DNA of 64,000 nt from Lytechinus pictus (taxonomy: Eukaryota), in assembly GCF_037042905.1 (NCBI RefSeq), contig NC_087251.1, positions 37,450,001 to 37,514,000 of the forward strand, read 5' to 3'. Each line of letters starts with the position of its first letter. Within the stretch, counting starts at the first letter, position 1. Positions 9,201 to 37,646 of the stretch are shown one piece after another. The translations under genes and the position numbers were made by a program. The notes under the pieces were generated by a model that saw nothing but the letters and a program-made list of their open reading frames with translations, did not search any database and was not told where the DNA came from.

Positions 9201-12200
9201 TCTATCCTATTAAGATAATGCTATTTGATTGGATGAGAGCAAACTTGGCTCAGATTTAAAGCCATTGTTATCAAACCAACCTTTTTTAAACCCAACACTA
9301 CTTTACCTTTCCACATGCGTACTGCTACTCCTCGGCTGACATCAATCAGAGACACCCTGCCAAAGCTATCAGTGCTAACTGCTAACCTCATACCAGGAGC
9401 TAATACAATGCTATCACCATGGCGACGGACATCCGGTAATCCAAATCTGCAAGGATACGAGAGAGACAGATAGAGATATCTATCAACCTGCTGACTGGTG
9501 AATTATGTAATTTTCATGATTATACTGGTGGGTGTTTCATAAAGCTGTTCGTAGGTTAAGAGCGATTTTAAGAACAACTGGTGAACCTTTCTTACGCGCT
9601 AACCCATTGCCAATGAATATTTAGAAGTATACCATTTACCACAAGAAAGGATCACCAGTCGCTCTTAACGTAAGAACAGCTTTATGAAACGGCACCCGGG
9701 AACCACCAGGCCCCAGAATATCGTAACTACTGAATTCTGTAATTCTCATGAACTTTGTGCAGAGTTTTATGTTAAGTGTGACTTTACAAACGACTGGTGA
9801 TCCTTTCTTGTGGTAAATGATACACCATTAAATGTTCATTGGTGATTATAATAGTGCGTAAGAAAGATTGGCCAGTCGTTCTTAAAGTCGCTGTTAACTG
9901 ACATACAACTTTATGAAATGGCCACCTGGTCCAGAAGGTGATGTATTAAATTGCTCTTAAAGTTAACTTCATTTGCTGCTTGTGTACCTAAAATAAAGCA
10001 GTAAATGTGATCTTATTTTCAAATTCATACAGCACAAACAAACCTTCACAGACAAAGATAATATTTATATGAAGTTAAGTTATAATTTCATTTCACATAA
10101 TTAAAACCATTTGAATGACCTGAATCACATAAGTCATTTTGAAATCTGTAGTTTGAAACCATGACTTATGTAGAATTCATGCATTGATTATGCTACATTC
10201 AGCACTTATATTGAAATTGCATCCCCTATGAATGTGTACATTTGCATCAGGGTGATAGCTAGTTACTTTATAGGTTATTGCATTAATAAAACAACTGTTT
10301 TGAGGAAATGACTCCACTGTTGGTTAACAGAGGAGTCATTTACTCAAAACAGTCGAATGTAAATGAATTAACATTAATGTTAATTAATTTACATAAGCAA
10401 TTGCATCATTAATACAATAACCTTAGTAACAAGCATCAATAATGATTTCTATGGCAAAAGTGAGCATTTATCATTACACGATTCATCAATGTACACAGTG
10501 AATTAACATAATCAATACATGAAATATGCGTAAGCCACTCTTTGAAAACCACAGATTCAGAACCAAACTTTGTGAATTTCGGACATCATGCCCATGCTTA
10601 CCTTATTGGAAGTGATATTGCAGGTTCAATTCTAGGTTTCGTCTTGCTAGGGGCTTGCGTGTCTGTATTCTGCTTGTTTCCACCAAATCCAAACCAACCA
10701 CTGTATAAGCAAGCAAAACAATTACCTAAGAAACCATGTCATCTTACATTACACAAAGTTTGAAGTTATGCCCATCAATTATCAGAGTTTTAACGGCTAA
10801 ATCACCCTCACCGCAGCAAAAAATAGGATTGTAGATTAATTGTTGTTCACTGAATTAAAGCATTATGTAGAGGTGTTACAGCCAAAGAGGATAAGGTCCA
10901 GTGTTCAAATCCTGCATTAGCACTTGCAAAATTTGGCAAGGCATTTATCTTCATTTGCCACTCTCCATCCAAGTGGAGTAATGGGGACCCTGTAGAAAGG
11001 AATTCCTTGATTTCTCAAGCACCTAATACAGGTAGCTATGCTAAAGCTGGGACAGCAATATGCGGCGCTTAGAAGCATTGTATTTATGCACTATATAAAT
11101 GTTGCATATCATTATTACTATTATCATTATAAGGTTGATATTCTAAATGGAATGAAATAATTCGATAAATGTTCAGAACATACCTTGCAGCAGAGAATAT
11201 GGCTGACTTGAGCTTGCTAGCAACAGCTAATGCCACATCAGAGAAAAGAGGTTGAGCACTTCCCTGGAGGAGTAGAAAAAGAAGCAGTCACATATAAATA
11301 AACAACCTTACAATACAGTTAAACTGTCTCCTGCAAAACTGTGTCCGAAAGATTGGGAAAGGTGGATTGTAATGCATTGATTGAAACTGCACCGTGAGCG
11401 TTCGTCCGAGTGGATTTGGCACGTTAATAATCATACATATTTTTGTAAGAAATCAAATCAATTCTGCTATGTCACACACACTGCACATACTAATGTTCAG
11501 CCAACACATGTCAGTTGTGCTTTGACAGATAATGAAAGTTAAGAAATTAAATATCAAGTTTTATTTTTATGAATTTTTCTCACATAAACTTTCATCCAAC
11601 AGGCCCTTGTAATAATAAGTTATGGACTACAGCAAGGTAATAATTAATGGTCATAATCTATCAACCTTGTTAGACAGATTCCACCATAATGATTTTGTTC
11701 CTACCTCTAGAGCAAAGAAGAATCCTAGGAAAGGTCCGGCACCTGTTGTGATATACTTGTGACAGACCGGGGGAGAGGTCTTAATGGATGCAGCATAGCC
11801 ACCTAGGGTTGAGGCTGCGTGGAGCTGGTCAAAGGAACAACTGGTCACAACACCTGCACAAAACACAATATATGGGGCACACATTATCATTCAGAATAAA
11901 ACATTAATCAAAATGGATAAGGTAATGTCCATAGAGTGTCTTCTTTACTAATATCCATTAATTCATTCACAATTTATTTCGATTTTACCTTATTAAAATA
12001 CCTCATTGAATATCCGTTGGTACCATCATATATAGCTCGCTCTTCCATGACAATATTTAAGGCATACCTGTGCTAATGTGGTCCACTATGGCATCTTGTT
12101 GCTGTAAGCCCCATTTCTTGTAGACAAGTGGTGGTGGTTGTATGTTGTCACTTCCACTGGCAGCAGCTGCAATATAATCAAGAAGAATGACATTTCTGAA

Positions 12201-15200: not shown

Positions 15201-18200
15201 TATGTAATATAAAATGTATGATTTTCATTTTTTTAATGGTTCCTGATGACTTACTTTTGTTTTCTTTTCATGATAGGGTGTGAAATGATTTGTCTATTGA
15301 TATACTGATGGTACAATAAAAGTCATTTTCAATTTTGTGAGATAATTACATTTTCATTGATTTTTTACCGTTTGTATGTAGGAATGCTGCTCGCATATAA
15401 CGTCACAAATCACATAATTAAAATTCCAATAACTTTTTAATTATTTAATGGATTTTTCTCAAAACCTTCTGCAATTTTTTTTAATTATTTTTTCTGCTAT
15501 ATTTACAATAAACTTTTTATCAGGGTAAACTTCCCCTTTAATATTTTATGCAATCTACTCACCCTTCTTCCTGATTCAACATTCCTTTGAAAACAATGTG
15601 ATATTTACTCTCAACGCCATCCTTCGCCTCTGGATCCCACTTTTCTGGTTTTGGAAAATAGACACAAACTTTGTATGATTTCTCTACAGCACTGCTTATT
15701 TTTTTTTCATAATCAACTACCTGTTGATATCCATGAAATGTTTACCCGGAACCTCAATCACAAAGAGACTAATCACATTCCCATATTTAAGATTTGTTTC
15801 ATTAAAGGCCTATAAAGCTAACAATTCAATAGAATCTGTACGACACAATTTCCCTATACTTTGGAATTCCACCCCAAAGATGTAACTGACAGCCAAAAAG
15901 AGATTAAAGCAGTTTCTTTATCTCAAATATGCACAGTCAATACTTTCTTGTAAATTATCGTAATTTCTAATTTTTTGTTTCTCTTGATATGGCTTGTTTT
16001 CCTACCTTATCCTTTCTTTGCAATGTAATTTTCAAATCAATGTTGTGGGAACTGTGCTTGTAAAAGGCCTCTTGGCTTTATTTACCCAATTCCCCATTTC
16101 ATTTTCATTTTTATATGTTCGCCCGGTAATGGGTCGGGACGTATTATGATCTCACGCTCGGTGTCCGTCCGTCTGTCTGTCTGTCAACTTTTCCTTATAA
16201 ACGCGAACACTTCAGTTTAACTCAAACTAGGCTCATATAATTGGGTGTGTATGATACTAGCATGGTTCCCAGGAAGCCTATTGATTTTGAGGTCAAAAGG
16301 TCAAGGTCACAGTGACATGTTTTCATCTTACCCTTCTGCAGTCCTTTTAAATGCGTTACATTTTCCACAATGACTGGCTGGATCTACAACATTGGAGAAG
16401 CTTTAAAGTACAAGTCCACCCCAATAAAAAATTGATTTGAATAAAAAGAGAAAAATCCAACAAGCATAAAACTGAAAATTTCATCAAAATCGGATGTAAA
16501 ATAAGAAAGTTATGACATTTTAAATTTTGCTTAATTTCACAAAACAGTTATATGCACATCCTGGTTGGTATGCAAATGAGGAGACTGATGACGTCATCCA
16601 CTCACTATTTCTTTTGTATTTTATTATATGAAATATTCTATTTTTCTACTTGTTGTCAAGTGAAACAGTGATTAATTCCTCCCTGAACATGTGGAATTAG
16701 CATTGTTTAATACTATATGATTCAGTCAAGTAGGTCCCTGTGGTCAAATCTGTAAAAAATGAAATACTGCATAATTCAAACAATAAAAAACAAAAGAAAT
16801 AAGTGATGGACATCATCGACTGACTCATTTGCATGTCACCGAGTTGTGCATATCACTGTTTTGTGTAAAATAAGCAAAAATTTAAGCTGCCATAACTTTC
16901 TCATTTTACATCCGATTTTGATGAAATTTTCAGCGTTATGCTAGTTTGATTTTTCTCTATTTATTCAAATCAATATTTTGCTGGGGTGGACTTGTCCTTT
17001 AACATTGCAGTGAATAGGAATTTTCCAGTGCTCTTTTGACCATTATGGGGAGCGAAGTCGCCCCAAGGCCCAATGTCATTTTTTTCTGATACTCACGTTG
17101 CAAGAAGACAGCTTTCTGTTCAAAGGCAATGACCATGAGCTCGCTGGTAGGTGATAGAGCTATAGAGCATTCCTGCATCCATGCATCTTGATCTGGAGGA
17201 CCTGCTTCCACCTCACTTCCTTCCTAAACACAACAACACAAACAACAATTCAAACAATAAAATACAAAAGAAAGAGTGAGGGACAATCATTGACTGTCTC
17301 ATTAACTCATTTGCATGTCACCGAGTTGTGCATCACTGTTTTGTGAAAAATAAGCGAAACTTTAAAATATCATAACTTTCTTATTTTACATCCAATTTTG
17401 ATGAAATTTTCAGCGTTATGCTAGTTTGATTTTTCTCTATTTATTTAAATTAACATTTTTCTGGGGTGGACTTGACCTTTAACAAAAAAAACCTTACACA
17501 TAAAAACCATTCTTTAAGAACCTTATATGCTTACCAACAAATTCTTGGTTTCAACAAAAACCTTGTGGTAAACTAAATGCTAATAATAAGAATGATCCGC
17601 TTTTATATAGCGCTTGATACATCGGCACGACATCTCTAAGCGCTTTGGATCCTACATTGTAGCATGCCCGAACCAGTGAAAAAAATACACGGGGACGGCT
17701 TACCATTTAAAAATCATCCAAAATCCACACTCAAAATCATGAATAAGCCTTGAAAATAGCGAGGAGCGCAGTTTCAAATTCCGAAGTTGCGTCTTTTTTT
17801 CTGTACCACGTATTTCCACAAACATGGTACCAGGTATGGAAAAAAAATCAATGCGACGGTCGGGAAACAGTTGCATGCATAGGGGTCCATTATGAATACC
17901 ACCATGTGCAATTTCTAATGCACATGTTTCCCCTACAGATATCACAATTCTGTGATAAAATAATTCGAATTACACAGGAAATAAATCCCAGAGTCTAGTA
18001 ACCTATCATTGGTGAGTTGTCATTCGGCTTTGCTTTTCAAAACGGCCTATTAACATCCAAAATAACTTACCTTATTTATTAATTATAACTTAAAAATCAT
18101 TTGTTTTATTTTTCTCGGGGATGTGGTAAATATCAGACAATAAATCATCGAACAAAGCTCCATCTATTTTACAAGGCCGCCGGCAGGCGCACGCATTGGC

Positions 18201-21200
18201 GCTTGTATTAGCTAGCCAGTCTGAGCTCTGTCTCTCTGCCAGAGCTCTGGGGGACAATTCGCTCAGTAAAGGCCTCAATGATGGTGATTTTCTGTTTCAG
18301 ACAGAGTTTACCTTTCAGGTATATTATTCAAAACTTCCAATAAAGTTTGATGATTTCTTCATTGTCATGTATATTTAAGTTCTTAATGAATACATTCTCA
18401 TCAAATTTAGACTCCCTCATAGAGAAATGCAATTTTCATGGAGATCTGCGTTTTCAAAGAACTTCACGAAAAGTTAGGGTATGTGGGCCTTATTACATGT
18501 ACATGGCCGAGTACAGGGTATTGTACTGGAATAGACGGAGTAGAAATTAGATATTGAATTCATTCATATCCAAGTCCAACTCACAGTCACACACACACAC
18601 ACACACACCCACCCAAGATTCTAAGCATGAAAAAAAAACCTTAAAAAATCATACAATATTAAACAAAAAGTAATAATTCATTAATAAGTGAACAGGTATT
18701 CCTCAAAATACAAAAAAGTAGCATTCAAAAAGAGCCCCCGAAATGCAACAAGTAGCCCCCGAAAGGTAGAAATGGAGCCCCCGAAAAAAAAAAAATTCCC
18801 TGGCCCGAACACAATGTATGCACTTTCTCCACTCAATGGGGAGCATTCCAACAAGAATTGCTTGGCACACTTTATAGGTTTCGCGTCCTACCGGGTTCCC
18901 ATTTAACACCTGGGTGGAGAGTGGCAAAGTGTGGATTGACCCCTTGGGATTCGAACACACAACCCACTATTTACAAGGTGAGAGTTAGAACCACTACACC
19001 ATGACCCTTCCATCATGCTTAACAGGTGGAATGCCTCTGGCAGCCTCACCTGTATTACTATCAATTTCTGGATCACAATTCAAACTTTCAATCTGACTTT
19101 GTTCTCATGAAGATGCGTTGTAATTAAACTGAAGCTCGCTTCGGCTGATCCACCTTGAAGCCGGCTGGAGCAACCACATACATTCTGATTACAGGGATGG
19201 TCCAGGCTGGAAATATTTATATCTCAATAAATAAGAGTAAAATTCACAGAGCAAAATGCTGAAATTTGATCAAAATCTGATAACAAATAACAAAGTTATT
19301 GAATTTTAAAATTTGCATTACTCGGTGAAACAGTTATAGGCACGTCTTCATGAATATTCATTAGGTGGGCTGATGTCATATCCCCACTTGTTCTTTTGTA
19401 TTTCAATATGAAATTAGGTTTATCCAAAAAATTTCTACCAAGAACTTAAACAATTGGATTGACAACTGATTAAGTGCATTAGTTATTAATTGCTGCAACA
19501 TATTTCATCATAATGGAGACACATCATTTACACATGTATGAAAAAAATGAAACATTTATGATTTCATGTAACAGAAGAAAAAGGAAAGTGGGGATGTGAC
19601 ATCATCAGCCCACCTAATGAATATTCATGATGATGTGCATAAAACTGTTTTCACAAAATATTGATAAACTTTAAAATTCAATAACTTTATTATTTGATAT
19701 CCGATTTTGATGAAATTTTCAGCATTTTGCTCTGTGAATTTTACTTATTTATTTAGATATACATTATTCATTTTCAGCCCGGACCATCCCTTTAAGACCT
19801 ACTCAATAACCCAGGCTGCTAGTAGAAACGCAAAACAAAGGAATTATTGTAGAGGCGTCGTCTAGATGGGTTGATTCAAAGCCATGGCATGTTTTCCTTC
19901 AGCAAAAACTTTACCCATATTGTGCTGCACTCAACCCAGGCGAGGCAAATGGGTACCCGGTAGGAAAAATTTCCTCCCTACATGTAGGTAGCCAGGCTAA
20001 AGCCAGGGTAATAATAATAGTAGGGCCCGAAGGGAAAACAGTTTTCGGAACTGAAGTGGCTACATGGAGTAAATATACCATTATTATTTTTATTATTGTG
20101 TTTTTCTTATTTGTATCTGTCATCAGAGCTTCACTAAGTTGAAGACCATAAGGAGTAAATTTGATTGAGGTTGTCTTCAGAATTCCTTTAAACATTTAAA
20201 CTTTTAACGTGTTTGAAGATATATCGTAGACAAATTTTGAAAAAATATCCATCGAGATAATAAGTGGAGATCCCTCTGCATGGATCATGAAGGGTTGGAT
20301 CTCAGAATCAGAGAGATATGCACAACAAAAATGTAATATCCCTCCTTGATTGGGATAGAAGAAGACAAGATAGTAAAAGCACATATTGGTTTTCAAGTGC
20401 ATGTTAATTGCAGTGCCATCTATGAAATTTCATATTAAATATTGAATTTAAAAAAACAATGGAATAACATCAAAAATTCACATTAACAAAATATACCCAA
20501 AGCAGAATAAGTGCATAAACACTACAGGTCATGTTTTATTTTTTATAAATCATTTTGTTAAAGGAATATGTCTATTGAAGATTTAGGGTTAATAGAAGAT
20601 TAAAACAAATTAATAAATGATTAATTCTTTGAATATGAATCAATTCAGTTTCTGCACCCCATTACATTTTTCACTACAGGACATCATCATCATCACAAAT
20701 TTGAATTTGGCCAAAAAAATCATACCAGAAGCAAGAGTGCAAAACAAATCATGTATTTTTTTATAAATCGTTTTGTGTGAGGAATATTTCTTACAAGATT
20801 GAAAATATAGGGTGAAAAAAATTATAGAGATAATAAATGGTCTACTTAATTTTATGACTCAATAAAACTTCAGCTGCACTCACAGTTTTCACAAACAGGA
20901 CAACATTATCACAAATTTGACTTGAACAAAAAAAGGGAAAAAAGACAAATGAAATAAATAAGGAATTTTACAAAAAAAAATGCACATACAGCAACTGCAT
21001 TGTCATAGATAAAGCTTTAACTAAATTATAGAAAATTTGAAATATAGCACTTTATAGCAATTTCAAGAAGAAAATAATACACATACTGGAACTACATGTG
21101 GATAAAGCCACTAAACTAAAAGAGGGTGAAACTAAAATGACACTCACTTTCTGAAAAGCAACAGCATTTACTGTAGTTTTGACATTTAGACTCACACTGT

Positions 21201-24200
21201 TACTTTCTTCTCCTGACCACGACCAATCTGCATCCTCCCATCCATCTGAGGTGAGGAAAAAAACATTTCAAGACATGTTAATGGAGGAATTATTAACCAT
21301 AAAATATCAAGCATAAATGCCAGTTGTGGTAACAATCTAAAATTAGTTCAAACTCAAGAGATGATAATTTATTTCAAGTTCCTTTTTGTGAGCCCAGACT
21401 GAGCCTGGGTGAATTGGATACAAAAAAACAGTTTGAGTCATAGTTTACTGAAAAGTTAACATCTTTGCAAGAGAGAAAGAGAGAGTAGTAATGCATACAT
21501 TATATTTTATAAGTTTGTGATCTGATGATAACCTCGATCAGGGGCGGATCCAGGATTTTCCAAAAGGGGGGGGGATGTGGAGCCGTGATATGTGCAAACG
21601 CCGGGATATGTGCAAACAACGGTATATGTGCAAAATTTCGCCGGGATTTGTGCAAACAACGGAATTTGTGCAAACGCCACGCCGGAAAATGTGCAAATCT
21701 GTCAAAATGTATCAACGGCATCTGTTCAAACGTGACGACGGGATATGTGCAAATGAACAATTTTCACGGGAAAAGTGCAAACCTCCGGGATATGTGCAAA
21801 TTACTGTTTTTATCCATATTAAGGATATTTCTCATGAAATGTTTCATAACATTACTGTTAAAATGAGAAACATGCCTGCATAAGGGAGAAGCTACAGCTA
21901 GTGTCATCGGCAATGAAACGCTTTTCAGAGAGGCAGTGGGGGGGGGGGGGGCACCAGGCTTAGTGGACATTTGCTCTGGCGACAATTGCTCCGATGTAAA
22001 TTCTAAACATTAAGCGAAACATAAAAGCTAACCTCCAAAACTAAATACACCCTAATCGTAATCATGACAATATTCTGAACCAAGAACTCTATCACAATCC
22101 TAACACTAATCCTATGCCTTCTGAGATATTAATTGTCGCAATTTTCGCAGGAGTATATGTCGTGTCACCTTAAAGGAACATTTAGTACTGTTTCGAACAC
22201 TGCATGGGGCAATTATTAAAGGGGGTGGGAGAGGCAAGCATGATTTCCACTGATACTCACATTGAACTTGATCTGTTGATTTCATTTCCAGATTTCATCA
22301 GAAGTTGTCGAATTTCTTTAAAATTTAATTATAAACCCAAAATGTCTTGATTACTATGCCATTTGATATTAATTTTTTATGAATCTATGAACATTCAAAC
22401 AAGACATTGTTTCCTATCTCTTTTAACACACCCAAAGTGACGCCAGCTTGTGTAATATCAGCCACATGTGTAAAAACACTGTACCCACTAACGTATATAA
22501 AAAATATTTCCCACACAATCATGTCATACTAGCGCACTTTACCAACAAGAGGCATTAATTTCGAACTACTGTATATACCCACAAATGCGATGCACTTTAC
22601 TCTCTAAATGAAATATTTTTAGGTTGCAATTCATACACCTCGATTTTACAACGAATGTTCCATATGATATGAATGCAGGGGCTGCGATCCGGGGGGGGGG
22701 GGGCAGGGGGTTCACAGTGCCCCCACTTTTTGAAGCACTAAACAGTTTTCCCTTTTAACCCAAGAACGTTGCCCCTTTCATCTTAGAAGGACCTGTTTTA
22801 TGTGTTAAAGTGTGCCCCTTTACCTTTTTATAAATATAAGTGCACATTCTCGTATCAGATAAGTTTCCATTCCTTAAAACCGCTCTTTTCATGCCCTGTC
22901 ATTGTCCGTTTTCCTTATTTCGCGTTCTTATCCCTTCTAAAAGTGCATATTTAAATAATAAAAATCCTTTTAAATTGTTCCTCTCGCCCCTTTAACCCTA
23001 TCTTGGCCAGGGGGGCTCGGAGGCCCCCCTCCCCCCTCAACGAGTCGCGCGATATTTTCGTCGCGCAAAATTTTTTGACCGCGCTGCTCGCTGACTTTTT
23101 ACTTTCAAGTCTTCCGCACCTTTTGAGACCAATTTTGCGTCACCCGGGTACGCGGTTCCGAAGTTACGCAATGTTACGTAAGTGCATCTCAGACCAAAAA
23201 TTGCTCAAAAAACGTGATTTCGTGTACAAAGTCAATGTAAATTGTGTTTTCAACCAAAAATCATAAATGTATGATTATTTTTAGTTTTGCACGCCTAAAT
23301 GTATGTATTTTATGCTGTTTATGATCTTAGAAGAGTCCCCAACGAATTTCATTGAAAAAAACAATGAAAAACAAAAGGTCCAAAAAACAAAGAAATACAT
23401 ACATAGGAAATTGATCTGATATCACGATTTTTTCATGTACACTTGCTAAGAACATCACAAAGGGTTTCTATGCCAAAAATTAGAACATTTGGAGCTTTAT
23501 TTACGGAGTTAGAGGAAAAAGTATGATTTTGCATACTAATTACGCATAAATTAGCATAATTACGTAATAACGATTTGCATGAAATAAATTACTATACAAT
23601 TTTGTAGATTATATCCCAGACAACATGCGTGCCAATTTTCGGTGCGATCGCGCGGTCGACGGCCGAGATCTCAAGGGGGGGGGGGGGGGCCTGGGAGGCC
23701 CCCCTCCCCCGGCCATATGAATTCCAAAAATACCCCGACCTAGATAGGGTTAAGTTGCCCCTTTTCAGAGTGAAATTCTTCTTCTGTAGTGTGTATATTT
23801 TCACCTTTGATCAAGTGCCCCATATGATTATTCTGATAAATGTCCCTTCTCTTCTGGTTTGTTCAAATGTCCAATTTGCTAATATAAGGTATATGTATTT
23901 GCAATTAGCGTCCTTTCTTTTATGCAGGGGCATCTGAGCAGAGGGAGAGGGGGGGGCACTTGCCCCCTTAAGAAATGGACCTCGTTCCATGGACTCAAAA
24001 AGTTTTCAATACCAAGAAAAAGAAAAGAAGAAAAGGAAAGAAAAGTGGTGAAATATGATAGTGTTCTCTATGTCAAAATCTATCACAAATGTTTGTTTTT
24101 TTCATTAAAAGTTTCAAAATTTTGCTCGCTCGCTCGCTCGCAGCTTTAAAGAAATTTTGCCCCACACGCCATGTTTGCCCCACTCAATCATTTTGCTCAT

Positions 24201-27200
24201 TACCCTACTAGGGTACATTATGCTATTTTGTTTTTAAAAAAGTTTTTTGTTTCAAGTGCCCTTTTCTAAAAGAGGAAGTGCCCTTTTTCGCTGTGCCCTC
24301 CCCTCCCCTATCAATTTTGCTCTGCCGACCCATGCTGGTAGTCTCCTTTTCCAGACCCAATGCGACCTTCCCTACAAGATGAAGGTTATTAGTCTACTTT
24401 TTAATACTCAGTCTTGGCCATATATTCTTCCAAACAACAGGATTAACGCTATACCTGGACTAGCTAAGCGTAGTCTTTACTCAAAACCCGGTAGTTAAAA
24501 AGAGAAATAATCTTAACAATTTAAACCTCACCATCTTCTAAACCATTGCCATGTCATCAAGCATATGGATATAGAGTTATTATTTTCTCCAGACCCAGTC
24601 ATTTGAAAAAAAAAAATCAAGAATCTTCGAAACGTCAATCCCGTCATCTTCAATACTAAGAACCTGTAATGTAGCACATGGGTATACAGCGTAATCATAC
24701 AGTGGGTGTACAGTGTAGTTTTTTTAATAAATGGATATGGAGTAAAGGCTATGCTATAGGTACCCGTGCTTTGTTATACTTATAGACTATTAGTTTGGAA
24801 GATGATGGGGTCTTACTATTTAAGTTTTTTTTTAATCACCAGGTTTGGAGTAAAGACTACACTCTATATCCATTTTTTCCCCTCAGATATGAGACGGTGG
24901 GGTCGTCAAATTGAAGATCTCCTAATTTTTTTAATAACAGCGTCTGGGGTAAAGACTGTGCTCTTATATCCATGCTTTCTTACGGGGTCTTATTTTTAAA
25001 GATTATAACATAATTTTTTTTAAACGGGTCTGGAGTAAAGACTACGATATGTACCCTTGCTTTATAACGGAGTCTTAGTCTTGGGTCTTAATTCTGAAGG
25101 TTTTTTAATCAAAGGTCTGGAGAAAAGACAACGTTTTATATCCATCTTTTTCACAGGAATGAGACTGTGGGGTCTTGAAAATTTGTTTAAATAAACGGGT
25201 CTGGAGAATTGAGAATACGTTATATACACGTTCTTTATAACAGAGTCTTAGTAGTGGAAGGGGCTTAAATAGTTTTGAATTTGTTTAATCACCCGGTCTG
25301 GAGCAAAAACTACACTTTAAACCCAGTAACCACCGATAGCTCAGTTGGTAGAGCGGAGGACTGTAGATGATTGATGATTAACATTATGTCGCTGGTTCGA
25401 ATCCGGCTCGGTGGATGTGGTTTTTTTGGCGCAAATATTCACTACTGAATGACACGCGCCGTATAAGCTAAAACAACAACTTATTCGATAGGAATGAGAC
25501 GGTGAGGTATTAAATTAGATTTTTTTTATTGATACAACAAGGTCTAGGGTAAAGACTACATTCTATATTCATTTCTACAAGGTCTTAATTTGGTAAACGG
25601 TGAGGTGTTGCAGTTTTTTTTTTATTATTTTTGAATGGCTATGCTCCTTATGTATGCTTTAGTACAGGATCTTAGTTCAGAAGGATCTTCAAATGATTAA
25701 ATGACCGGGTCTGGAGCATTAACAGACTACACTCTACATCCATGTTATTCCAAACGATAGTGGGTCTTCAATTTAAGGTTGGTGCCCCCCCCCCCCCGCC
25801 GCCTCTCTGAAAAGCGTTTCATTGCCGATGTCATTGTAGCTTCTCCCTTATGCAGGCATGTTTCTCATTTTTAACAGTAATTTTATGACTGAAACATTTC
25901 ATGAGAAATAGCCTTTCTATGGATAAATGCAGTGATTTGCACATATCCCGGAGGTTTGCACTTTTCCCGTGAAAATTGTTCATTTGCACATATCCCGTCG
26001 TCACGTTTGCACAGATGCCGTTGATAAATTTTGACATATTTGCACATTTCCCGGCGTGGCGTTTGCACAAATTCCGTTGTTTGTACAAATCCCGGCGAAA
26101 TTTTGCACATATACCGTTGTTTGCACATATCCTGGCGTTTGCACATATCACGGCTCCACAGGGGTACATTTTCCCAATGAAAATTTGACAAGCAAAAAAA
26201 AGGGGGATCACACTTGAGTAGAAGATATATTTACATTACAAATTTTTATTATGGCTCTCAAAAGGGGGGGGGCATGGGCCGGCTGTGCCCCCCCCCCTGG
26301 ATCCACCACTGACCTAGATTATTTTGTCGACGAATGTACTTGAGTTTCACTCAAGTACACCAGGGGGCCGTTTCATAAAGATGTTCATAAGTTAAGAGCA
26401 ACTTTAAGAACGACTGGTGATCCTTTCTTACGCGCTAAACCATTGCCAATGAACATTTTGGTGTACACGGGTCATTTAACACAAGAAAGGATCACCAGTC
26501 ATTCTTAAAGTCGCTCGTAACTTACGAACAGCTTTATGAAACACCCACCAGGGGAGGTATTTAATTGGAAGTATTGTGCTGCAATATATGTTCAACGGAA
26601 TAAAACCATGTTTATATGTTTCCACCTAGCCCTATTTTGATTAAAATGATAATAAATTGAAACCTATAAAAATTAAAAACCACTGACACTGTGGATTGTT
26701 TTTTTTTTTTATCATTTTGTTGATTTTTTTGGTGAATAAATGAGATGAGAATAAAATAAGGTATGCTTAAATAATAAGGTGTGGGGTTAAAGTCATTTTG
26801 TTGATTTCTTTTTTAAATAAAATAAAGCACATGGGATAAAGTCGGATAAATGTTTAACAGAATAAAGCATGTATATTTCCACCTAAGTTAACCCTATTTT
26901 GATGAAAATGTTAATTGAGAATGATAAAAATTTAAAAAAATTGTTGATTTTTTCTTTTTAAAGGTCAAGTCCACCCCAGGAAAATGCTGACTTGAATAAA
27001 TAGAGAAAAATCAAACTAGCACAGTGCTAAAGATTTCATCAAAATCGGATGTAAAATAAGAAAGTTATGACATTTTAAAGTTTCACTTATTTTTCACATA
27101 ACAGTGATATGCACAACTAGGTGAGTCAGTTGATGATGTCCATCACTCACTATTTCTTTTGTTTTTTATTGTTTGAATTATACAATATTTCATTTTTTTT

Positions 27201-29662
27201 TAGATTTGACAATAAGAACCAACTTGACTGAAACATATAGTATTAAAGAATGCTAATTCCACATGTTCAGGAAGGAATTAATCGTTGTATCACTTGACAA
27301 TGAGGAGAAAATTAAAATATTTCATATTTCATATAATAAAATACAAAAGAAATAGTGAGTGGATGACGTCATAGTCTCCTCATTTGCATACCAGCCAGGA
27401 TGTGCATATAACTGTTTTGTGAAATTAAGCAAAACTTTAAAATGTCATAACTTTCTTATTTTACATCCGATTTTGATGAAATTTTCAGTGTTATTCTTGT
27501 TGGATTTTTTCTTTTAATTCAAATCAACTTATTGTTGGGGTGGACTTGTCCTTTAATGAATGAGATGGGGTTAAAATCTATTTTTATGAAAATAAATAAT
27601 AATGTAAAGCCTAACCCTAAACCTTTTAAAACAAAATACCCTAAACACTAACCCAATCCGCCTATGAGTCCCCAACCAACCCCCTGAAAATAATTTCTAA
27701 ATGAGGTCAGAATCGTAATGAGGCCAGCCTTGCCATGTCGATTATTGGGGCAAGCAATTTTCGCTGGACCTATCTAATAGCACGTATCCTATTGCATATA
27801 TTGCATTTTCGGTGATGTGCATATTGCGCTTTTGTTTTTTAACCCTCGATCGACACTACTTTCTAGAGTTCTGTCGTCAATTTCTCTTGCAAATTTGTAT
27901 TTACAATGAAATCTTCGGAAACTTCTGTCAAACCTGGATGTAAATCGATTGGAAGTGGAAATATTAAATTGAGGAATAAACTGAATATGTGGAGGCAAGC
28001 ACACAGTAGGATGGGGGGTTGGGTGACCGGACACTTAACAGAAATGAAGCCTTGTTTTTATCTCAGGAATAAACCAATAATATAGGTTGAATAGTTTTTT
28101 TTCACCATCAATATTTGTTCTTTATAATATTTTCTTATATTCTGTGCTAAAAAGAATTAAAGACATTGCTTGTAAACTTTTCGAAATTGAGAGTAAAAGT
28201 CATGTGTCCGGACACCCAACCCGTCCGGACACAGAATCACTGGGTATACAGTGTGGGAAGAAGACTTCGATATGAAATATGTCCCCTCCATCCACTAAGT
28301 AAAAAAATTCTACGACAAAACCCCCTACTTCTGTTATCTTTTTCTTCTTACTTCCATGCGTCCATAACATTGGCGAAGAACAATGAGAAACAAGATGGCG
28401 GCGTAAACATCGGGCAAGTCTCTCCCGTCTTTTCATAATATTTTAATCATTTTTTAAATGAATTCTTGTTTAAAAATGAAATTGATAGCGTAGAAATGTC
28501 GGAAATGAAGTCATATCCCATTTACATGATTTAGGGCTAGATCTCTTAGAAGAAGAGTAGAAATCTCGGGGCGAAAGTTTGAGGTTTTTTGGCGGTACAT
28601 GCAGATGAATGGGATGGAATCCCTGGCTTTGTGGAGAGTATTACGTTAGTAAATAAATGATTGTTACTCTCTAGGAGCCTCCTGGCTTGTCCTGGGGCCG
28701 ATTGCACGAAAGGGTCTTTCCAAGGACCGTCTTTCGTGTCGCCCATCTTTTATGATAAGCTGTATGCGGGATATTTCTGAAATGTATAGTGAGTGCTTGT
28801 ATTACCGACCGGCCTTGTATTACCGAACGCGCGCATCATACGCATCAGAAATAATTTCATACGCTCAAAATTTTGCAGAATCCTTCCAAAGAGAACTTGA
28901 ATAGAAAGATGATGAAAAATTGTAAAAAACACATTTTCAAAGTCTTAATATTCTAAAAATAGTAAAATATGGTCAAAATAGCTCATCAGTGATTTTGTTG
29001 TTTTCTCAACTTTTCCCAATGAAAACACACGTTCGGTAATACGATACCTTTTTCAAGTGACCAAAATATTTCACATGCGAAGAGGGGTCCGATCGGAAGC
29101 TAATATCGTAAAAAGGAAATACAATTTCGGCAAAATTTTTACAAATTTATATTTTGTAGGTAATTGTGTATTTATGGTGAAAGTTTGGTGAATTTTATGA
29201 GAATAATGTGTTTGATATGATTGAATTCATGAAAAGTGTTCGGTAATACGATCCACTACCATAACAAATAAAATTTGTTAGCTAGCATTTAAATCAATTT
29301 GTATACAATTTCATGATTATCACATCATTTTATAAACAAAGATTTTGTTTATTTTAACGGATGAATAAAATATATTTGCAGGTAATTTATTTAAAATGCG
29401 TTTCACATGGCGCATCATAATAAATGGGCGACACGAAATTCTTGCAATGACCCTTTCTTGCAATCGGCCCAGACATGGCCCATGATCTGACTGACACTGT
29501 TTGTGCACTTTTATACAGACATGCAAAAAATCATTGAATTTGCTTAGGCTCACCGGTTCCTGTCTCATTTCCTCCTTCACCCTTCTTCCAATTTGGGAAC
29601 AAGTATCTCTGAACAGCAGTAATATCATAGAAACATCCAACATTTGTCAAAACACACGACAT
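112..29662 (-). CDS. RAB3GAP2: Rab3 GTPase-activating protein non-catalytic subunit, multi-exon, 3'-partial (continues past window start)
   Basis: 19 exons assembled by hand with GT-AG sites and consistent phases: 29554-29662, 21196-21245, 17097-17223, 15563-15644, 14586-14709, 13168-13369, 12068-12166, 11705-11853, 11184-11263, 10602-10700, 9307-9446, 8160-8385, 6905-7134, 6286-6350, 4934-5257, 3971-4295, 3469-3566, 1173-1460, 112-267 (2973 nt). Peptides [58 protein letters not shown] and [11 protein letters not shown] match recalled vertebrate RAB3GAP2. Confidence 0.95.
1173..1460 (-). CDS. RAB3GAP2: RAB3GAP2 coding exon 18
   Basis: [11 protein letters not shown]...AGMVVRSLV...KGLQ; cag / GTTGGT. 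Confidence 0.82.
3376..3458. repeat. (CAT)n microsatellite, imperfect
   Basis: catcatcatcaccatcaac..., ending 10 bp from the exon 17 donor. Confidence 0.9.
3469..3566 (-). CDS. RAB3GAP2: RAB3GAP2 coding exon 17
   Basis: [33 protein letters not shown]; tag / GTAAGT. Confidence 0.82.
3971..4295 (-). CDS. RAB3GAP2: RAB3GAP2 coding exon 16
   Basis: [10 protein letters not shown]...RVHFESD...FLSCF...RLTL; open frame with GT-AG bounds. Confidence 0.85.
4934..5257 (-). CDS. RAB3GAP2: RAB3GAP2 coding exon 15
   Basis: [10 protein letters not shown]...[15 protein letters not shown]...ITAE; cag / GTAAAT. Confidence 0.88.
5669..5976. mobile_element. Harbinger-like MITE family E
   Basis: GGCCCGTATTCTGAAGTC / GACTTCAGAATATGGGCC; same family as 41403. 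Confidence 0.8.
6286..6350 (-). CDS. RAB3GAP2: RAB3GAP2 coding exon 14
   Basis: [21 protein letters not shown]; phases fit. Confidence 0.88.
6905..7134 (-). CDS. RAB3GAP2: RAB3GAP2 coding exon 13
   Basis: [12 protein letters not shown]...[25 protein letters not shown]. Confidence 0.95.
7818..8072. mobile_element. Harbinger-like MITE family F
   Basis: GGCCCCATCTTACAAAGAGTT / AACTCTTTGTAAGACGGGGCC, CWG flanks. Confidence 0.78.
8160..8385 (-). CDS. RAB3GAP2: RAB3GAP2 coding exon 12
   Basis: [14 protein letters not shown]...[28 protein letters not shown]. Confidence 0.95.
9307..9446 (-). CDS. RAB3GAP2: RAB3GAP2 coding exon 11
   Basis: [17 protein letters not shown]...[21 protein letters not shown]. 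Confidence 0.95.
9528..9696. mobile_element. MITE family G (a degenerate second copy lies at ~9750-9926)
   Basis: GTTTCATAAAGCTGTTCGTA..TAAGAACAGCTTTATGAAAC palindromic structure, shared with 26364. Confidence 0.75.
10602..10700 (-). CDS. RAB3GAP2: RAB3GAP2 coding exon 10
   Basis: [10 protein letters not shown]...[14 protein letters not shown]. Confidence 0.92.
11184..11263 (-). CDS. RAB3GAP2: RAB3GAP2 coding exon 9
   Basis: [26 protein letters not shown]. Confidence 0.93.
11705..11853 (-). CDS. RAB3GAP2: RAB3GAP2 coding exon 8
   Basis: [28 protein letters not shown]...FFFALE. Confidence 0.93.
12068..12166 (-). CDS. RAB3GAP2: RAB3GAP2 coding exon 7
   Basis: [32 protein letters not shown]. 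Confidence 0.95.
12782..13048. mobile_element. Harbinger-like MITE family F (opposite orientation)
   Basis: GGCCCTGTCTTACAA / TTGTAAGACAGGGCC; CAG TSD. Confidence 0.78.
13168..13369 (-). CDS. RAB3GAP2: RAB3GAP2 coding exon 6
   Basis: [28 protein letters not shown]...[18 protein letters not shown]. Confidence 0.95.
14586..14709 (-). CDS. RAB3GAP2: RAB3GAP2 coding exon 5
   Basis: [41 protein letters not shown]. Confidence 0.95.
15039..15537. mobile_element. Kolobok-like MITE, family B
   Basis: AGGGGAAGTTCACCCTGA / TCAGGGTAAACTTCCCCT; flanks TCAA / TTAA; long inverted arms. Confidence 0.8.
15563..15644 (-). CDS. RAB3GAP2: RAB3GAP2 coding exon 4
   Basis: [27 protein letters not shown]; phases fit. 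Confidence 0.88.
16407..16998. mobile_element. Kolobok-like MITE family A, complete copy
   Basis: TTAA TSD; AGTACAAGTCCACCCC / GGGGTGGACTTGTCCT termini with long imperfect inverted arms. Confidence 0.85.
17097..17223 (-). CDS. RAB3GAP2: RAB3GAP2 coding exon 3
   Basis: [28 protein letters not shown]; tag / GTGAGT. Confidence 0.92.
17245..17478. mobile_element. Family A MITE, one-ended fragment
   Basis: Matches the right half of 16407-16998 and ends GGGGTGGACTTGACCT+TTAA. Confidence 0.8.
18880..19012 (-). mobile_element. tRNA-derived SINE-like relic (related pieces at ~6690-6870, ~10890-11100, ~19880-20030)
   Basis: B-box-like GTTCGAATCCC on the minus strand and a shared core CACTCTCCACCCAGG...AATGGG(T/A)ACC in four places. 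Confidence 0.55.
19193..19791. mobile_element. Kolobok-like MITE, family C
   Basis: AGGGATGGTCCAGGCTG / CAGCCCGGACCATCCCT; flanks TTAC / TTAA. Confidence 0.8.
21196..21245 (-). CDS. RAB3GAP2: RAB3GAP2 coding exon 2 (alternative in-frame donor would extend it to 21148)
   Basis: [17 protein letters not shown], an acidic/Trp motif like the vertebrate DWEDDGW; cag acceptor, GTGAGT donor, phase 1 to 0. Confidence 0.8.
22996..23749. mobile_element. piggyBac-like MITE
   Basis: TTAA TSD on both sides; termini CCCTATCTTGGCC / GACCTAGATAGGG. Confidence 0.85.
25330..25415 (+). tRNA. tRNA-Tyr(GTA) gene with 13-nt intron (25367-25379); anticodon stem damaged, possibly a pseudogene
   Basis: Acceptor stem CCACCGA/TCGGTGG pairs fully. 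A box TAGCTCAGTTGG and B box GGTTCGAATCC are present, anticodon GTA is at 25363-25365, and the intron follows position 37. The anticodon stem GAGGA/ACATT has two mismatches. Confidence 0.85.
25421..25427 (+). terminator. Pol III terminator (T7 run) of the tRNA-Tyr gene
   Basis: TTTTTTT starting 5 nt after the discriminator base. Confidence 0.7.
26364..26548. mobile_element. MITE family G
   Basis: CAG TSD; inverted arms GTTTCATAAAG / CTTTATGAAAC. Confidence 0.78.
26962..27552. mobile_element. Family A MITE, complete copy (opposite orientation to 16407)
   Basis: TTAA TSD; AGGTCAAGTCCACCCC / GGGGTGGACTTGTCCT. Confidence 0.88.
29554..29662 (-). CDS. RAB3GAP2: RAB3GAP2 coding exon 1
   Basis: [26 protein letters not shown] resembles the RAB3GAP2 N-terminus; donor G|GTGAG. 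Confidence 0.88.
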
Positions 29663-30334
29663 ATTCAGCTACTACAGTATGGCACTTGGCCTCACAAAAT
29701 CCAAAACAAGCAAACTTGTCAAACCCTAATAAAACAAGCTCGCGATCTGGTGTCACAGTATTAAAATCAAGATCACCGGACAGTACGGATTGATCCGGGA
29801 GAACAAAACGACTGAGCGATTTGTTCTCCGGTCTCCCTCCTAGCCTGGTGGCTGATCCGGTGGGGGGGGGGCGCACCGGCCCCTGTTCCATCCCCCGCCC
29901 TCTTTTGAAACCTCAGGGGGGAGAGGGGAAAAGGGGGAGGGAGAGTATAAAAAAAGGAAGGCAAAAAAGGAGAGACAAACTTTAGAGAAAAGAGGAAGGA
30001 GCCGGGGGAATTAAGGAGTAAAGAAAAGAGAGAGAGAGAGGAGCATAAGAATTGAAAGGGAGAGAGGAAATGAATGAAGGAAGAAATAGAGAGAGGGAGG
30101 ACGGAGAGGTATAAAAGGAACTGAGGGGGAAGAAAAGTTACTTGAAAGACATCCTCTGCCCTTGGGCGCAGGTTGAGTGCCGGGCTCATATTCTTTTTTT
30201 TTTAACTCTTAGAAAAAATTATCATCTTATTTTTCCACATTGGAATGGAAGAAAAAGAAAGGGGAAAAATGTATACCGAGTGCGAAAGGACCTTGTCTGG
30301 GTATCCAGGAAGGCGTCCCCCCCCCCAACTTTGA

Positions 30335-30825
30335 AGGTCAAGTCCATCTAAGAAAAATGTGGGTTTGAATCAACAGAAAAAAATCAGACAAGCATAATGC
30401 TGAAAATTTCATCAAAATCGGATGTAAAATAAGAAAGTTATGACATTTTAAAGTTTCGCTTATTTTTCACAAAATAGCTATATGCACAATTTAGTCACTT
30501 GCACATGAGAGAATCGATGATGTCCATCACTCACTATTTCTTTTGTTTTTTATTGTTTGAATTATACAATATTTCAATTTTACAGATTTGACAATGACAA
30601 ACTTGACTGAACCACATAATGTCTAACAGTGGTAATTCCACATGTTTAGGGAGAAATAAAACTTTGTTTCACAGGACAATGAATGAGGAGCAAATTAGAA
30701 TATTTCATATTTCATATAATAAAATACAAAAGAAAAAGTGAGTGAGTGATGTAATCAGTTCCATCATTTGCATACCGACCGGGATGTGTATATATTTTTC
30801 TCTTTTTATTCAAATCAACATTTTG
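30335..30825. mobile_element. Family A MITE, internally deleted and right-truncated copy
   Basis: Starts AGGTCAAGTCCA and shares internal sequence with 26962-27552; right terminus missing. Confidence 0.75.
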
Positions 30826-31099
30826 TTCAAATTGGACAAGGAATAACAAAGTAATGACATTTTAAAGATTTGCATTATTTCAGTGAATCTATTTTATGTA
30901 TGTCTTAATGAATATTCAATAAGAAAACTATTTTGAGGGTGTCATATCTTTTAGATTTCATTACATGAAATTGTTAATTCAAATTTTGACTTCTAGGATT
31001 GACAACTGGATTAATGCATTTGCAACCTATTTCATGATAAGGGAGTCACATGCCCGTCATGTATGAAAATATGATATGATTATGATTCTATGTAGTACA

Positions 31100-33110: not shown

Positions 33111-34247
33111 CCTTTCATGTTATATTCTCGTTGCCAACCTTTGTACTAAATATTTGTATTATATCACTTGATTGTTTTTTTACTCTTATATCACTTATGA
33201 ACAGAATGGCTATCTAACTAAACAACATTTTTATGCGAGAGCGAACCGCGAGCTGAACATTTTTTATATTCCGACCCAAACCCTAAAATTCTACACTTAT
33301 TGTGACCATAAACTGGATGGATATCTATCTAAACCAGGGGCGGATTCAGCCTCCGCCAATAGGGGGGGGGGGCCGAATATTTTTTCACCTATATTTTCCC
33401 CGATCGGCCGCTCAAAGTTGATTTTTGTTTGTTTCTTTAAAGGTGTTATCACAGTGGCGTAATGAGCCAAAAAAATTGAGGGGGCTCGATTTAGGTTATT
33501 GCGTAAAATTAATAAGAAGTTACGAGCGAGCGAGCAAAAAATTTAGACATTTTTATTACAAAAATCCAAGTTCGTGATAGATTTTGACATAATATTTGGA
33601 AAATAATATATTTCACCCTTATCCCTTTTTTCTTTTCTTTTTCTTGATCGTGATTTATTTATTTATTTATTTATTTTTTTTTGGGGGGGGGGGGGCAAAA
33701 TGCCCATGTCCTAACAGTAATTTCTTAGCTTTTATTCTTACATAAATGTGTAGTAATTTCGTAGGCCCTATTCAAATAGTGTGAGCGCGAAGTGCGAGCT
33801 AAACAATTTTGAAATTTCATGTATTTTGTCCTGAAAATTGAACATTATAGGTAATGCTTGTGAACAATTAAGATGCGTATGTAACTACATAATTACTGCT
33901 CGCGCGAAGCGCGAGCAGAAATATTTATAATGCGTTCTGGCCTTGTCGGAAAGGGACCTGTTCTGGACGTTTTGCTGTCAGCCATTTACACGATACATAT
34001 TTCAATGATTCAATAATGCGAGCGCGAAGCGCGAGCTGAAATTTTTTTGACGTTCCGGCCAAAAAAGTTAACGTTCTATGCACTTTTTGTAATCATGAAC
34101 GGTATAAAACCAAACAATTGATGCGAGCGCAAAGCGCGAGCAAAAAAAAAAAAGAAGAGATTTCAAACCTAAAAACGGGATACCCTCTTTATGTTTTGTA
34201 AATCATTAAAAAAAAAATGGGTATAATTTGGTATCTTCCTATATTAA

Positions 34248-34833: not shown

Positions 34834-35717
34834 TTAATAATACGAGCGCAAAGCGTGAGCAAATTTTTTTTGATATTGTGATCTGAAACTGAATATATAT
34901 GCTCATAAAGATTTAAATAAAGAACAAGCTGTGTATCTAAATAAACATGCGTGCGCGTGTTTCAGATTTTGACCTAGAATCTGGGCATTCTAAATACCCT
35001 TTTTCATCATGAAAATCAATAAAGCGAGCGCGAAGAGCGAACTTAATATATTTGATATTCCGATCTGAAAAAGGTCAATTTAAGCTCTGTATTTCAAGCA
35101 CTTTGTAGGAAAATTGTGAGGTGGATATGACTCACAGTTAAAAAAAGATCTAATATGTTTCATTATTATTACTTTGAGTTTTGACATAGGACAGGGACAT
35201 TCTAAGAACATTATGTCATCATATGAAAATGATGACCATCTTCCTATTTCTCTTCCTAAGCGGGAGATGAAACTTGACAATTTGACCTGAATAGGGATAT
35301 TTGAGAACTTTATGGAATACAGGAAAATAATAGGTACCTGACAAATCAAATTTTGCGAGCGCGCAGCGCGAGCAGAAAATGTTAATATGCAGAAGATAAA
35401 ACATAAATTTTTGCAGAGCACTTTTTAAAAATTAATTTGTAAATCAAACAAAATAATGAAAGTTCGATTTCCGGGCTGAAATATGTTTTATATAGTGATT
35501 TAAAAATTTGATATTTAAAGGTCAAGTCCACCCCAGAAAAATGTTGATTTGAATCGATAGAGAAAAATCAGACAAGCTTAATGTTGAAAATTTCATCAAA
35601 ATCGGATGTAAAATAAGAAAGTTATGACATTTTAAAGTTTCGCTTATTTTTCACAAAATAGTTATATGCACAATTTAGTCACTTGCAAATGAGAGAATCG
35701 ACGATGTCCCTCACTCA

Positions 35718-37646
35718 AAAGGCTCTGACGGCTTTTGGTTTTGGTATATCCTTTCAGAGATGGGTCAAAGTTTTGTATACTGACACTCTAAGTTGTGTTT
35801 TAAATGAAGGAAATTCCACTGGTTATTTTGAAATAAAAAGGGGGGTGAGGCAAGGGGATCCTCTTAGTCCTTACCTTTTTATTTTGTGTATTGAAGTAAT
35901 GGCTCATAAATTACGAAAAGATAATCTGATTGAAGGAATAAAATTTGGAGATAAAGAAATTAAATTAGCACTTTATGCAGATGATATGACAGTTTTTGCT
36001 CGTAATGTAAAATCAGTTGATATATATAGACTAAAAGTTTTATTTGCAGATTTTGAAAAACTTTCTGGATTAAAAATCAATAATGAAAAAACTAAAGTAT
36101 TAAAATTAGGCTCATGTCAGCATTTTGATTATGACTTCTCCTTCGGCGAGATCGTTGAATTTCTTAAAGTTTTAGGAGTATTTTTCACCCTAGATGAACA
36201 TAAGAAAGAAGATCTAAATTACAAAGAAATCTTAAGCAAAATTAAAACACTCTTGAACTTTTGGAAGCTAAGGGATATAACGCTTATGGGAGAGATTCAA
36301 CTATTAAAGGTGCATATCTATTCTAAAGTCCTCTATCGAGCGCCTCTTACTCCTGTTCCTAAGTGGGTTTATGAATCATTGGATGAATTAACTTTTGATT
36401 TCTTATGGAAAGGTAAGAAAGACAAAATTAATAGGAATACAATGTTTTTAGACTATAAGCAAGGAGAATTAAAGATGTTAAACTTCCCTGTGCAGGTAAA
36501 GGCACAGCGAATAATGTGGATTAAAAGACTTTTAAATAAAGATGAAGATATGAAATGGAAACAGTACTTTAATTTTGCCACTAAACATTTGGGTGGAGAT
36601 TTGATATTTTCATGTGACTATATACCAGGTTTATTGAAAGTAACAGCTTCCAAATTTTACATGGACTTGTTAGAAGAGTGGGTAAATATAAGACATATTA
36701 GAAGTACAGAGTTTGGGAAAGTGGTGATTTTTAATAATAAGCTTATTCGATATAAAGGGAGTTGTATATTTGATAAGATTCTATACGATAAAGAGGTTTA
36801 TAAATTGCATCATATTTTGGATAATAATGGTAAACTAAAATGCGATACACATTTTCTTAATTTGAATTTAGATGCAAATGATGTTGAAAAGATCAAGCAT
36901 ATAATGTATATGCCTGTTTACCCGTTAGTTGGAAGAACAATATCGAAATAAATGCAAAGCATAACTCTGGAATCGATTTCAATTTGGGTAAGAAAACAAC
37001 TAATTTAATGCTTTTAAAATCAAAAGAAATATACGAACAGCTGTTGAATAAAAATGACATTAAACCTTCTATTTTCGACAAAATTAGAACGAATTATGAT
37101 CTTACCAATAAGGAAGTAGAAAGTATATTTTTAAGACTAAGATATTGCACACTGAATAGTCGATTAAGGGAGTTTCAGTATAAACTTTTGCATAATATTA
37201 TATACACTAACCACCACCTTTTCCGTTTTGGTCTTGTTTCGACCAATTTATGCTCATTTTGTGAAAAGGAAGAAGAAACGTATGAACATCTATTTTATAC
37301 TTGTGAATTTTCAAAATCACTTTGGGATATGTGTGCAAGAAGTTTAAATTCTGAAATAAATAAATTTAGTTGGCAGGAATTTTTTTTCGGGAAGCAGGAG
37401 AAAAGTAAAGGTAAATATCAATTAATTAATCATATTTTGATTTCAGTTAAATATCTTATTTACAAAAACCGAGAATTAAAAAAACCTCCTTCATTGAATG
37501 AAATAAAAAATAGTATTAGGGGGGATCAAAGAGAAGAAAAGAATTTAGCAACAAAGAGGGGGACTCTTACAATCCATTTCTCTAAATGGGAAAACTTAAT
37601 TATTAGACCATTTATTGGAGCCCAGAGCCAGCTCTCCACCGGATAG
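35718..37646 (+). pseudogene. LINE ORF2 remnant (RT C-terminal half + zinc-knuckle region) with one frameshift near 36900-36911
   Basis: ORFs 35683-36951 and 36984-37646 join through the shifted frame ACLPVSWKNNIEINAKH; endonuclease and N-terminal RT are absent. Confidence 0.85.

Follow-up and report, generated by a model that had tools for sequence, protein, structure and literature searches.

In Drosophila, the foldback element Tetris has long terminal inverted repeats (TIRs) made up of tandem repeats on the outside and a unique domain on the inside, a non-coding, heterogeneous middle and target duplications of 8 to 10 bp, and it has been assigned to Mutator; the accessible part of its description mentions no tRNA cargo (PMC4079207). 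Pack-MULE and Pack-TYPE elements carry protein-gene fragments in plants (PMC6839031, PMC8903248). A 4,585-bp element from the sea urchin Lytechinus pictus resembles both systems. It occupies positions 21576-26160 of the window, the 64,000-nucleotide stretch analyzed here (NCBI RefSeq assembly GCF_037042905.1, contig NC_087251.1, positions 37,450,001 to 37,514,000 of the forward strand), and encloses an intron-containing tRNA-Tyr-like gene. Like Tetris, it shows outer tandem-repeat arms, an inner unique domain, a non-coding middle and no transposase; it differs in its TGT..ACA ends and a duplication of 4 to 6 bp, its flanks having 3 to 6 mismatches at 8 to 10 bp. With the Pack-TYPE elements it shares a non-autonomous TIR organization with host DNA between the arms; in contrast to them, it carries repeats and a tRNA pseudogene, lives in an animal and is known from one copy. 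The element is a fairly young foldback-type insertion and is probably a non-autonomous foldback/Pack-type element with a passenger tRNA-Tyr pseudogene. The sea-urchin TU elements of Lieberman (1983) are reportedly foldback elements as well.

A further comparison leads to the retroelements. The TRIMp3 elements Helenus, Ajax and Cassandra are smaller than ~1.3 kb and have a primer-binding site, a polypurine tract and direct long terminal repeats (LTRs), in which a tRNA-like part lies and acts as the promoter (PMC10886601). These elements, the tRNA-derived short interspersed elements and the urchin element are all non-autonomous mobile DNA with a look-alike of a small-RNA gene that has RNA polymerase III (Pol III) boxes and is unlikely to yield a functional tRNA. 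Contrary to TRIMp3, the urchin element is 4.6 kb long with inverted arms, and its tRNA copy lies outside the arms, internally, with an intron and a terminator.

The whole 4,585 bp are one insertion, inside a small hAT-like miniature inverted-repeat transposable element (MITE) in the first coding intron of RAB3GAP2. The features on which this assignment and the reading of the tRNA copy rest are the following:

21531..21538, no strand: target duplication of the host MITE, left copy, 7/8 match to 26312-26319
21539..21575, plus strand: left half of the host hAT-like MITE, with a 16-bp end followed by an A-run and a G-run
21570..21575 (partner 26161-26166), no strand: candidate target duplication of the element, 5/6 in the 6-bp reading
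21576..21957, plus strand: left TIR, its outer part (to ~21800) with motif copies, its inner part unique
25330..25415, plus strand: tRNA-Tyr(GTA)-like gene with a 13-nt intron (25367-25379), from ARAGORN and Rfam RF00005
25421..25427, plus strand: run of seven T resembling a Pol III terminator, starting 5 nt past the tRNA gene
25777..26160, minus strand: right TIR, from alignment to the left arm
26161..26311, plus strand: right half of the host MITE, its end matching the left half at 14/16
26312..26319, no strand: target duplication of the host MITE, right copy, 7/8 match to 21531-21538

The 16-bp ends of the split host MITE match at 14 of 16 positions, and six such ends occur in the window versus 0.06 expected. 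Its 8-bp duplication agrees at seven of eight positions across 4.8 kb, for which the chance at local composition is ~2e-4. The label hAT-like refers to this duplication and to the CA..TG ends, which we take to be hallmarks of that group. A duplication flanking either arm individually was looked for, and neither arm has one. Because the host MITE is split with a 7/8 duplication and the arms have none of their own, the element represents a single insertion whose interior is foreign to the site. An earlier sequence-only reading had placed the element in the G-run of such a MITE, with both halves and the 8-bp duplication still visible, and had described a single TIR-bounded insertion containing the tRNA; both proposals hold. 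Two of the three routes by which that reading could fall, independent insertions of the two arms and a tRNA native to the site, are made unlikely by the window alone.

The near-identical inverted termini of ~380 bp with TGT..ACA ends, also part of the sequence-only reading, are recovered by BLAST as a match of 21576-21962 to 26160-25774 (E 4.5e-163; 92.6% identity across 392 columns). When 21576-21957 and 25777-26160 are aligned globally, 359 of the 377 aligned bases match and 18 are substituted, and a further 12 columns are gaps; this corresponds to arms of ~382 bp that differ by 4.8%. Both ends read TGTGG. Divergence between the arms is 2.7% in the outer 225 bp and 7.9% farther in (Fisher p 0.026), a contrast that reflects either arms that were imperfect from the outset or homogenization of the motif region. 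Each arm contains ten copies of a 7-bp motif (nine exact, one with one mismatch), all in the outer part and arranged in units of 18 to 23 bp; the nine exact copies per 385-bp arm compare with 11 in the remaining 63 kb. Long open reading frames (ORFs) spanning the arms are merely frames left open across the tandem motif and are not taken as genes. No third copy of the arm was found in the 64-kb window. Exact 22- to 24-nt patterns from the arms have no match in viral, metagenome and prokaryote collections, which are not expected to contain urchin DNA and are uninformative on copy number; patterns from the host MITE and one from the interior repeat array likewise have no match in collections not expected to contain such DNA. 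Sequencing runs contain at most 0.30 of the words from 19800-28300.

The tRNA-Tyr(GTA) gene between the termini, which had been reported with an intron, A and B boxes and a T7 run, is called by ARAGORN and reaches 46.5 bits with Rfam RF00005 (cut-off, 29). It was compared with 95 tRNA-Tyr matches in 78 metagenome loci, all 95 of which were parsed, yielding 14 distinct mature sequences. The copy differs from the modal reference at 7 of 73 positions, while no reference exceeds four. Alterations at positions 39, 41 and 45 include the loss of pairs 31-39 and 29-41, leaving three of five pairs in the anticodon stem compared to five of five in 93 of the 95 references; alternative intron lengths of 9 to 17 nt never raise this above three. 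The -3 base of the intron pairs with C32 (the anticodon-intron pair) for splicing. It is A in this copy and G in 93 of the 95 references and in 77 of the 78 distinct introns. The acceptor stem is fully paired (7/7), as are the D and T stems, and 19 of 21 stem pairs hold overall. With the anticodon stem broken and the anticodon-intron pair lost, established tRNA biology makes splicing and decoding by this copy unlikely. Since it is damaged where the code would be read, the copy is most probably a passenger rather than a working gene spread on purpose. DNA signals for TFIIIC and Pol III are retained, so that the copy may be transcribed; a run of at least four T within 30 nt downstream is found in 93 of the 95 references. 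Two of the 95 reference genes also show three of five anticodon-stem pairs, with an apparent intron of 10 nt, and are probably deletions.

The tRNA module of ~140 to 165 bp interrupts a unit of the repeat array, the first half of which ends at 25325 and the second-half motif of which resumes at 25490. Non-array DNA around the tRNA is limited to ~4 nt before the mature 5' end and 50 to 75 nt after the gene. No exact repeat longer than 5 bp flanks the module; the best candidates, with 8/9 matches, are explained by the likeness of the array units. The "whole transcription unit" of the sequence-only reading is thus really a small module without native upstream DNA, because its 5' flank is array; together with the damage to the anticodon arm and the intron -3 base, this leaves the idea of a whole, intact Pol III unit unsupported. 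A hairpin at 25427-25461 directly follows the T7 run, and the 79-nt trailer has a z score of -2.7 (3 of 200 shuffles as good) without an Rfam match. A hammerhead ribozyme, suggested by a motif seen by eye behind the tRNA, was dropped for lack of an Rfam match at E values up to 1.

The remaining interior consists largely of old repeats (~44% MITE-like pieces and ~38% repeat array including the tRNA, with borders drawn by hand):

21958..22151, no strand: probable truncated MITE remnant adjoining the left arm, identified by eye
22676..22991, no strand: G-run MITE remnant, kin of the host MITE's right half by an nhmmer match to 26158-26303 (E 1.5e-4)
22992..23753, no strand: nested MITE bounded by CCCT..AGGG (22996-23749) and flanked by an exactly duplicated TTAA, from its pair of ends and duplication
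23925..24212, no strand: MITE whose family is scattered through the window, with seven matches outside this copy (80% to 33449-33700)
24338..25776, no strand: degenerate array of ~85- to 100-bp units reaching the right arm

Of the approximately four MITE-like pieces, the nested one at 22992-23753 is the sole interior element with credible ends and a duplication, the others being truncated or without a duplication; from its ends and the TTAA, it is presumably piggyBac-like. The remnant at 21958-22151 has no relative within the window and no target duplication, and we take it to resemble a common MITE type of marine invertebrates. The MITE at 23925-24212 has decayed ends and lacks a duplication. 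The array units share a mean pairwise identity of 59% among eight training units, and five further units or part-units were found. The array is arranged head to head around a self-inverted match centered near 24715, with minus-strand units left of ~24700 and plus-strand units right of it (~4 units left of ~24715 and ~10 right), and it may be an older foldback element in its own right. At E below 0.3, the rest of the window contains no further array unit. The interior appears to be older than the insertion and to have been carried in, because the host MITE, which predates the element, still has both its ends and its duplication, unlike most of the interior pieces; this age estimate comes from one copy. 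Divergence shows the same contrast, with 4.8% between the arms versus ~41% among array units.

Coding capacity was assessed with interior stop-to-stop frames of at least 40 amino acids, 48 of 50 being put through Pfam. None of the 48 matched a transposase or any other Pfam domain at cut-off, and the three sub-threshold matches are weak and unrelated, none being to a transposase. Outside the element, the same scan picked up frames for RAB3GAP2, a Rad51-like protein and a reverse transcriptase.

The sequence-only reading had further assigned the element to Ginger, an assignment that fails on target sequence and arm length. Ginger1 elements have TGTNR ends, CCGG/CCGT targets (CCGT/ACGG), 4-bp duplications and TIRs of ~40 to 270 bp; Ginger2/Tdd elements enter an AT-rich RTATAY target with a 4-bp duplication (5 bp in Tdd), and Ginger TIRs are tabulated at 40 to 297 bp (PMC2836005). 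The TGTGG ends of the urchin element fit TGTNR. Its 4-bp flanks, however, are GGGA and GGGG instead of CCGG or CCGT/ACGG, and its arms of ~382 bp lie beyond the Ginger1 range and exceed every Ginger TIR tabulated. In contrast to Ginger2/Tdd, the target is a G-run, where one mismatch remains in both the 4- and the 5-bp reading, and in contrast to both Ginger1 and Ginger2, this copy has no Gypsy-integrase-like ORF (0 of 48 frames). As the TGTNR end is the only Ginger feature present, the element is not to be filed as Ginger.

The IS3EU/GingerRoot elements show 6-bp duplications, TIRs of 100 to 150 bp and mostly TA..TA ends (PMC10045372, PMC6839031). Complete IS3EU families always have TA..TA ends (PMC10045372), while TG..CA ends occur in 5 of 77 GingerRoot copies, which range from 3.9 to 12.9 kb and include host gene fragments in 22 of 77 (PMC6839031). 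The 6-bp reading of the urchin duplication (5/6) would agree with this group but is one of three equal readings, and TG..CA ends are the minority form there; cargo of host DNA and size are comparable. The element differs in its arms of ~382 bp compared to 100 to 150 bp and in lacking a transposase. Kinship with IS3EU/GingerRoot is compatible with these features and unproven. Academ elements have YR ends and 3- to 4-bp duplications, and the TG ends and one-mismatch 3- or 4-bp reading of the urchin element can be set beside this definition. Since non-autonomous elements are classified by their ends and duplication (PMC4455052), a superfamily call would take more copies. The word "tRNA" is absent from the main text, as available, of PMC10045372 and PMC6839031, and the available part of PMC8232201 contains nothing on tRNA cargo. 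The literature listings searched, whose scope excluded supplements, Repbase and most subscription papers, include no account of a DNA transposon that carries a tRNA gene with its intron, and none of DNA transposons that move Pol III promoter and terminator units.

Taken together, these results point to a non-autonomous cut-and-paste element with long TIRs and a foldback architecture, which entered the MITE in the RAB3GAP2 intron as one 4.6-kb piece. A DDE transposase supplied in trans, and recognizing the 7-bp motif repeated in the arms, would have moved it. The middle would be older passenger DNA, MITE remnants and the decayed array, captured before arrival, and the tRNA-Tyr module would have been copied into the already existing array; the arrangement is visible, whereas the order is the probable one. 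The tRNA would then be a pseudogene riding along and not the element's reason for being, with Pol III transcription possible in the absence of splicing or decoding.

Several observations weigh against this account. The element's own duplication is imperfect: the 4-, 5- and 6-bp readings have one mismatch each and are equally good, with at least three mismatches at 7 to 10 bp. That the tRNA traveled with the element is inferred from a single copy. The reference tRNA-Tyr genes derive from unknown organisms in few samples and are not this urchin's genes, and positions 6-37 and 46-57 were held constant by the search pattern. Of the seven differences, four are compensatory swaps at pairs 3-70 and 4-69 (P 0.00125 for random placement), which points to past selection on folding somewhere in the history of the tRNA and not to simple decay; the swapped acceptor stem is present in none of the 95 references, and a variant host tRNA-Tyr gene would be the simplest place for the swaps to have been selected. 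The A- and B-box positions are unchanged relative to the modal reference, a sparing that is not significant (P 0.06).

The tRNA module could instead have been pasted in at this locus after the element and its array, through DNA-repair capture or pre-tRNA retroposition, and would then never have been cargo. Such a late arrival agrees with the interruption of an array unit between 25325 and 25490, with the ~4 nt of non-array DNA ahead of the 5' end and with at least one nested MITE with a clean duplication, so that later insertions may have happened. It is nevertheless unlikely, although the least unlikely of the alternatives: the module lacks an exact flanking repeat of more than 5 bp, and the tRNA, with seven changes over 73 nt, is more diverged than the ~2.4% per arm to be expected from the divergence of the arms, unless the donor was already a variant. 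Also unlikely, and ranked behind it, is a Pol III cassette conserved throughout a transposon family, in which the tRNA-like module would serve as a TFIIIC site or a non-decoding RNA to the benefit of the element, e.g., keeping chromatin open. This amounts to the proposal of the sequence-only reading, a spreading Pol III unit that might act as a TFIIIC-binding insulator or promoter module, recast with a non-decoding RNA. In the equally doubtful detailed version, selection would hold the acceptor, D and T arms and both boxes, the anticodon arm would be dispensable, and the family would possibly be related to IS3EU/GingerRoot. The compensatory acceptor stem keeps this proposal alive as a minor possibility, next to the intact boxes, the terminator, the modest hairpin past it and the precedent of Pol III cassettes in non-autonomous LTR elements (PMC10886601). 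Against it stand the single copy seen, the asymmetric placement of the module among decayed repeats, the nonsignificant sparing of the boxes and the fact that a cut-and-paste element has no need of RNA.

It is very improbable that the element is relocating or amplifying a functional, variant tRNA-Tyr gene. Both programs call the gene, 19 of 21 stem pairs hold, and A73 and pair 1-72, which mark tyrosine identity in eukaryotes, are kept, but its two anticodon-stem mismatches equal the worst 2 of 95 references, and it has lost the anticodon-intron pair. That the 380-bp repeat inserted twice, independently, and came to flank a resident tRNA locus by chance is scarcely credible: each arm alone reads TG..CA and the outer duplication is imperfect, yet duplications around the individual arms are absent, the halves of the host MITE agree in their ends and, at 7/8, in a duplication whose copies lie 4.8 kb from each other, and no third copy of the arm occurs in the 64 kb. 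A pair of inverted solo LTRs was rejected, the arms having no duplications of their own. The passenger pseudogene thus remains the probable reading.

A Lytechinus RAB3GAP2 protein gives 19 exon matches by tblastn (82 to 100% identity) between 109 and 29662 on the minus strand, and the top protein matches of a RAB3GAP2 exon are to Strongylocentrotus (96%) and Lytechinus (94%).

21246-29580, minus strand: host intron, the first coding intron of RAB3GAP2, from tblastn with sea-urchin RAB3GAP2 proteins (flanking exons, ~29582-29662 and 21148-21245)

GT and AG are present at the borders of this intron, and the element lies entirely within it, 330 bp from its 3' splice site. As RAB3GAP2 is on the minus strand, the tRNA is antisense to its host gene. 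A Rad51-family gene on the plus strand (~41200-59400; Pfam), which we take to be XRCC3-like, is oriented divergently from RAB3GAP2. A broken non-LTR retrotransposon at 35662-37646 contains RVT_1 and zf-RVT in two overlapping frames. Hairpin MITEs are located at 16405-17002, 19196-19795, 26958-27556 and 30330-30830, several with TTAA flanks, and one hairpin-MITE family is represented by three copies in the window with 82 to 86% mutual likeness. Immediately beyond the host MITE, a hairpin repeat with 70-bp arms (26360-26552) has relatives near 9534-9930. The Rfam scan of the window yielded nothing credible apart from the tRNA; matches to mir-7, from the hairpin repeat at 26360-26552, and to Plastid-ycf2 both scored under their own cut-offs and were discarded.

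On the likeliest reading, the locus is a further example, from a genome rich in repeats, of a foldback/Pack-type element that contains passenger DNA; tRNA calls within repeats warrant a check of their stems. If the cassette proposal were true, the TRIMp3 retroelements would have a counterpart among DNA transposons, with TFIIIC sites spread through introns. If sister copies all keep the module, DNA transposons would be moving Pol III promoter and terminator units, and the family would serve as a natural experiment on whether transposons benefit from TFIIIC sites or host chromatin is reshaped by them.

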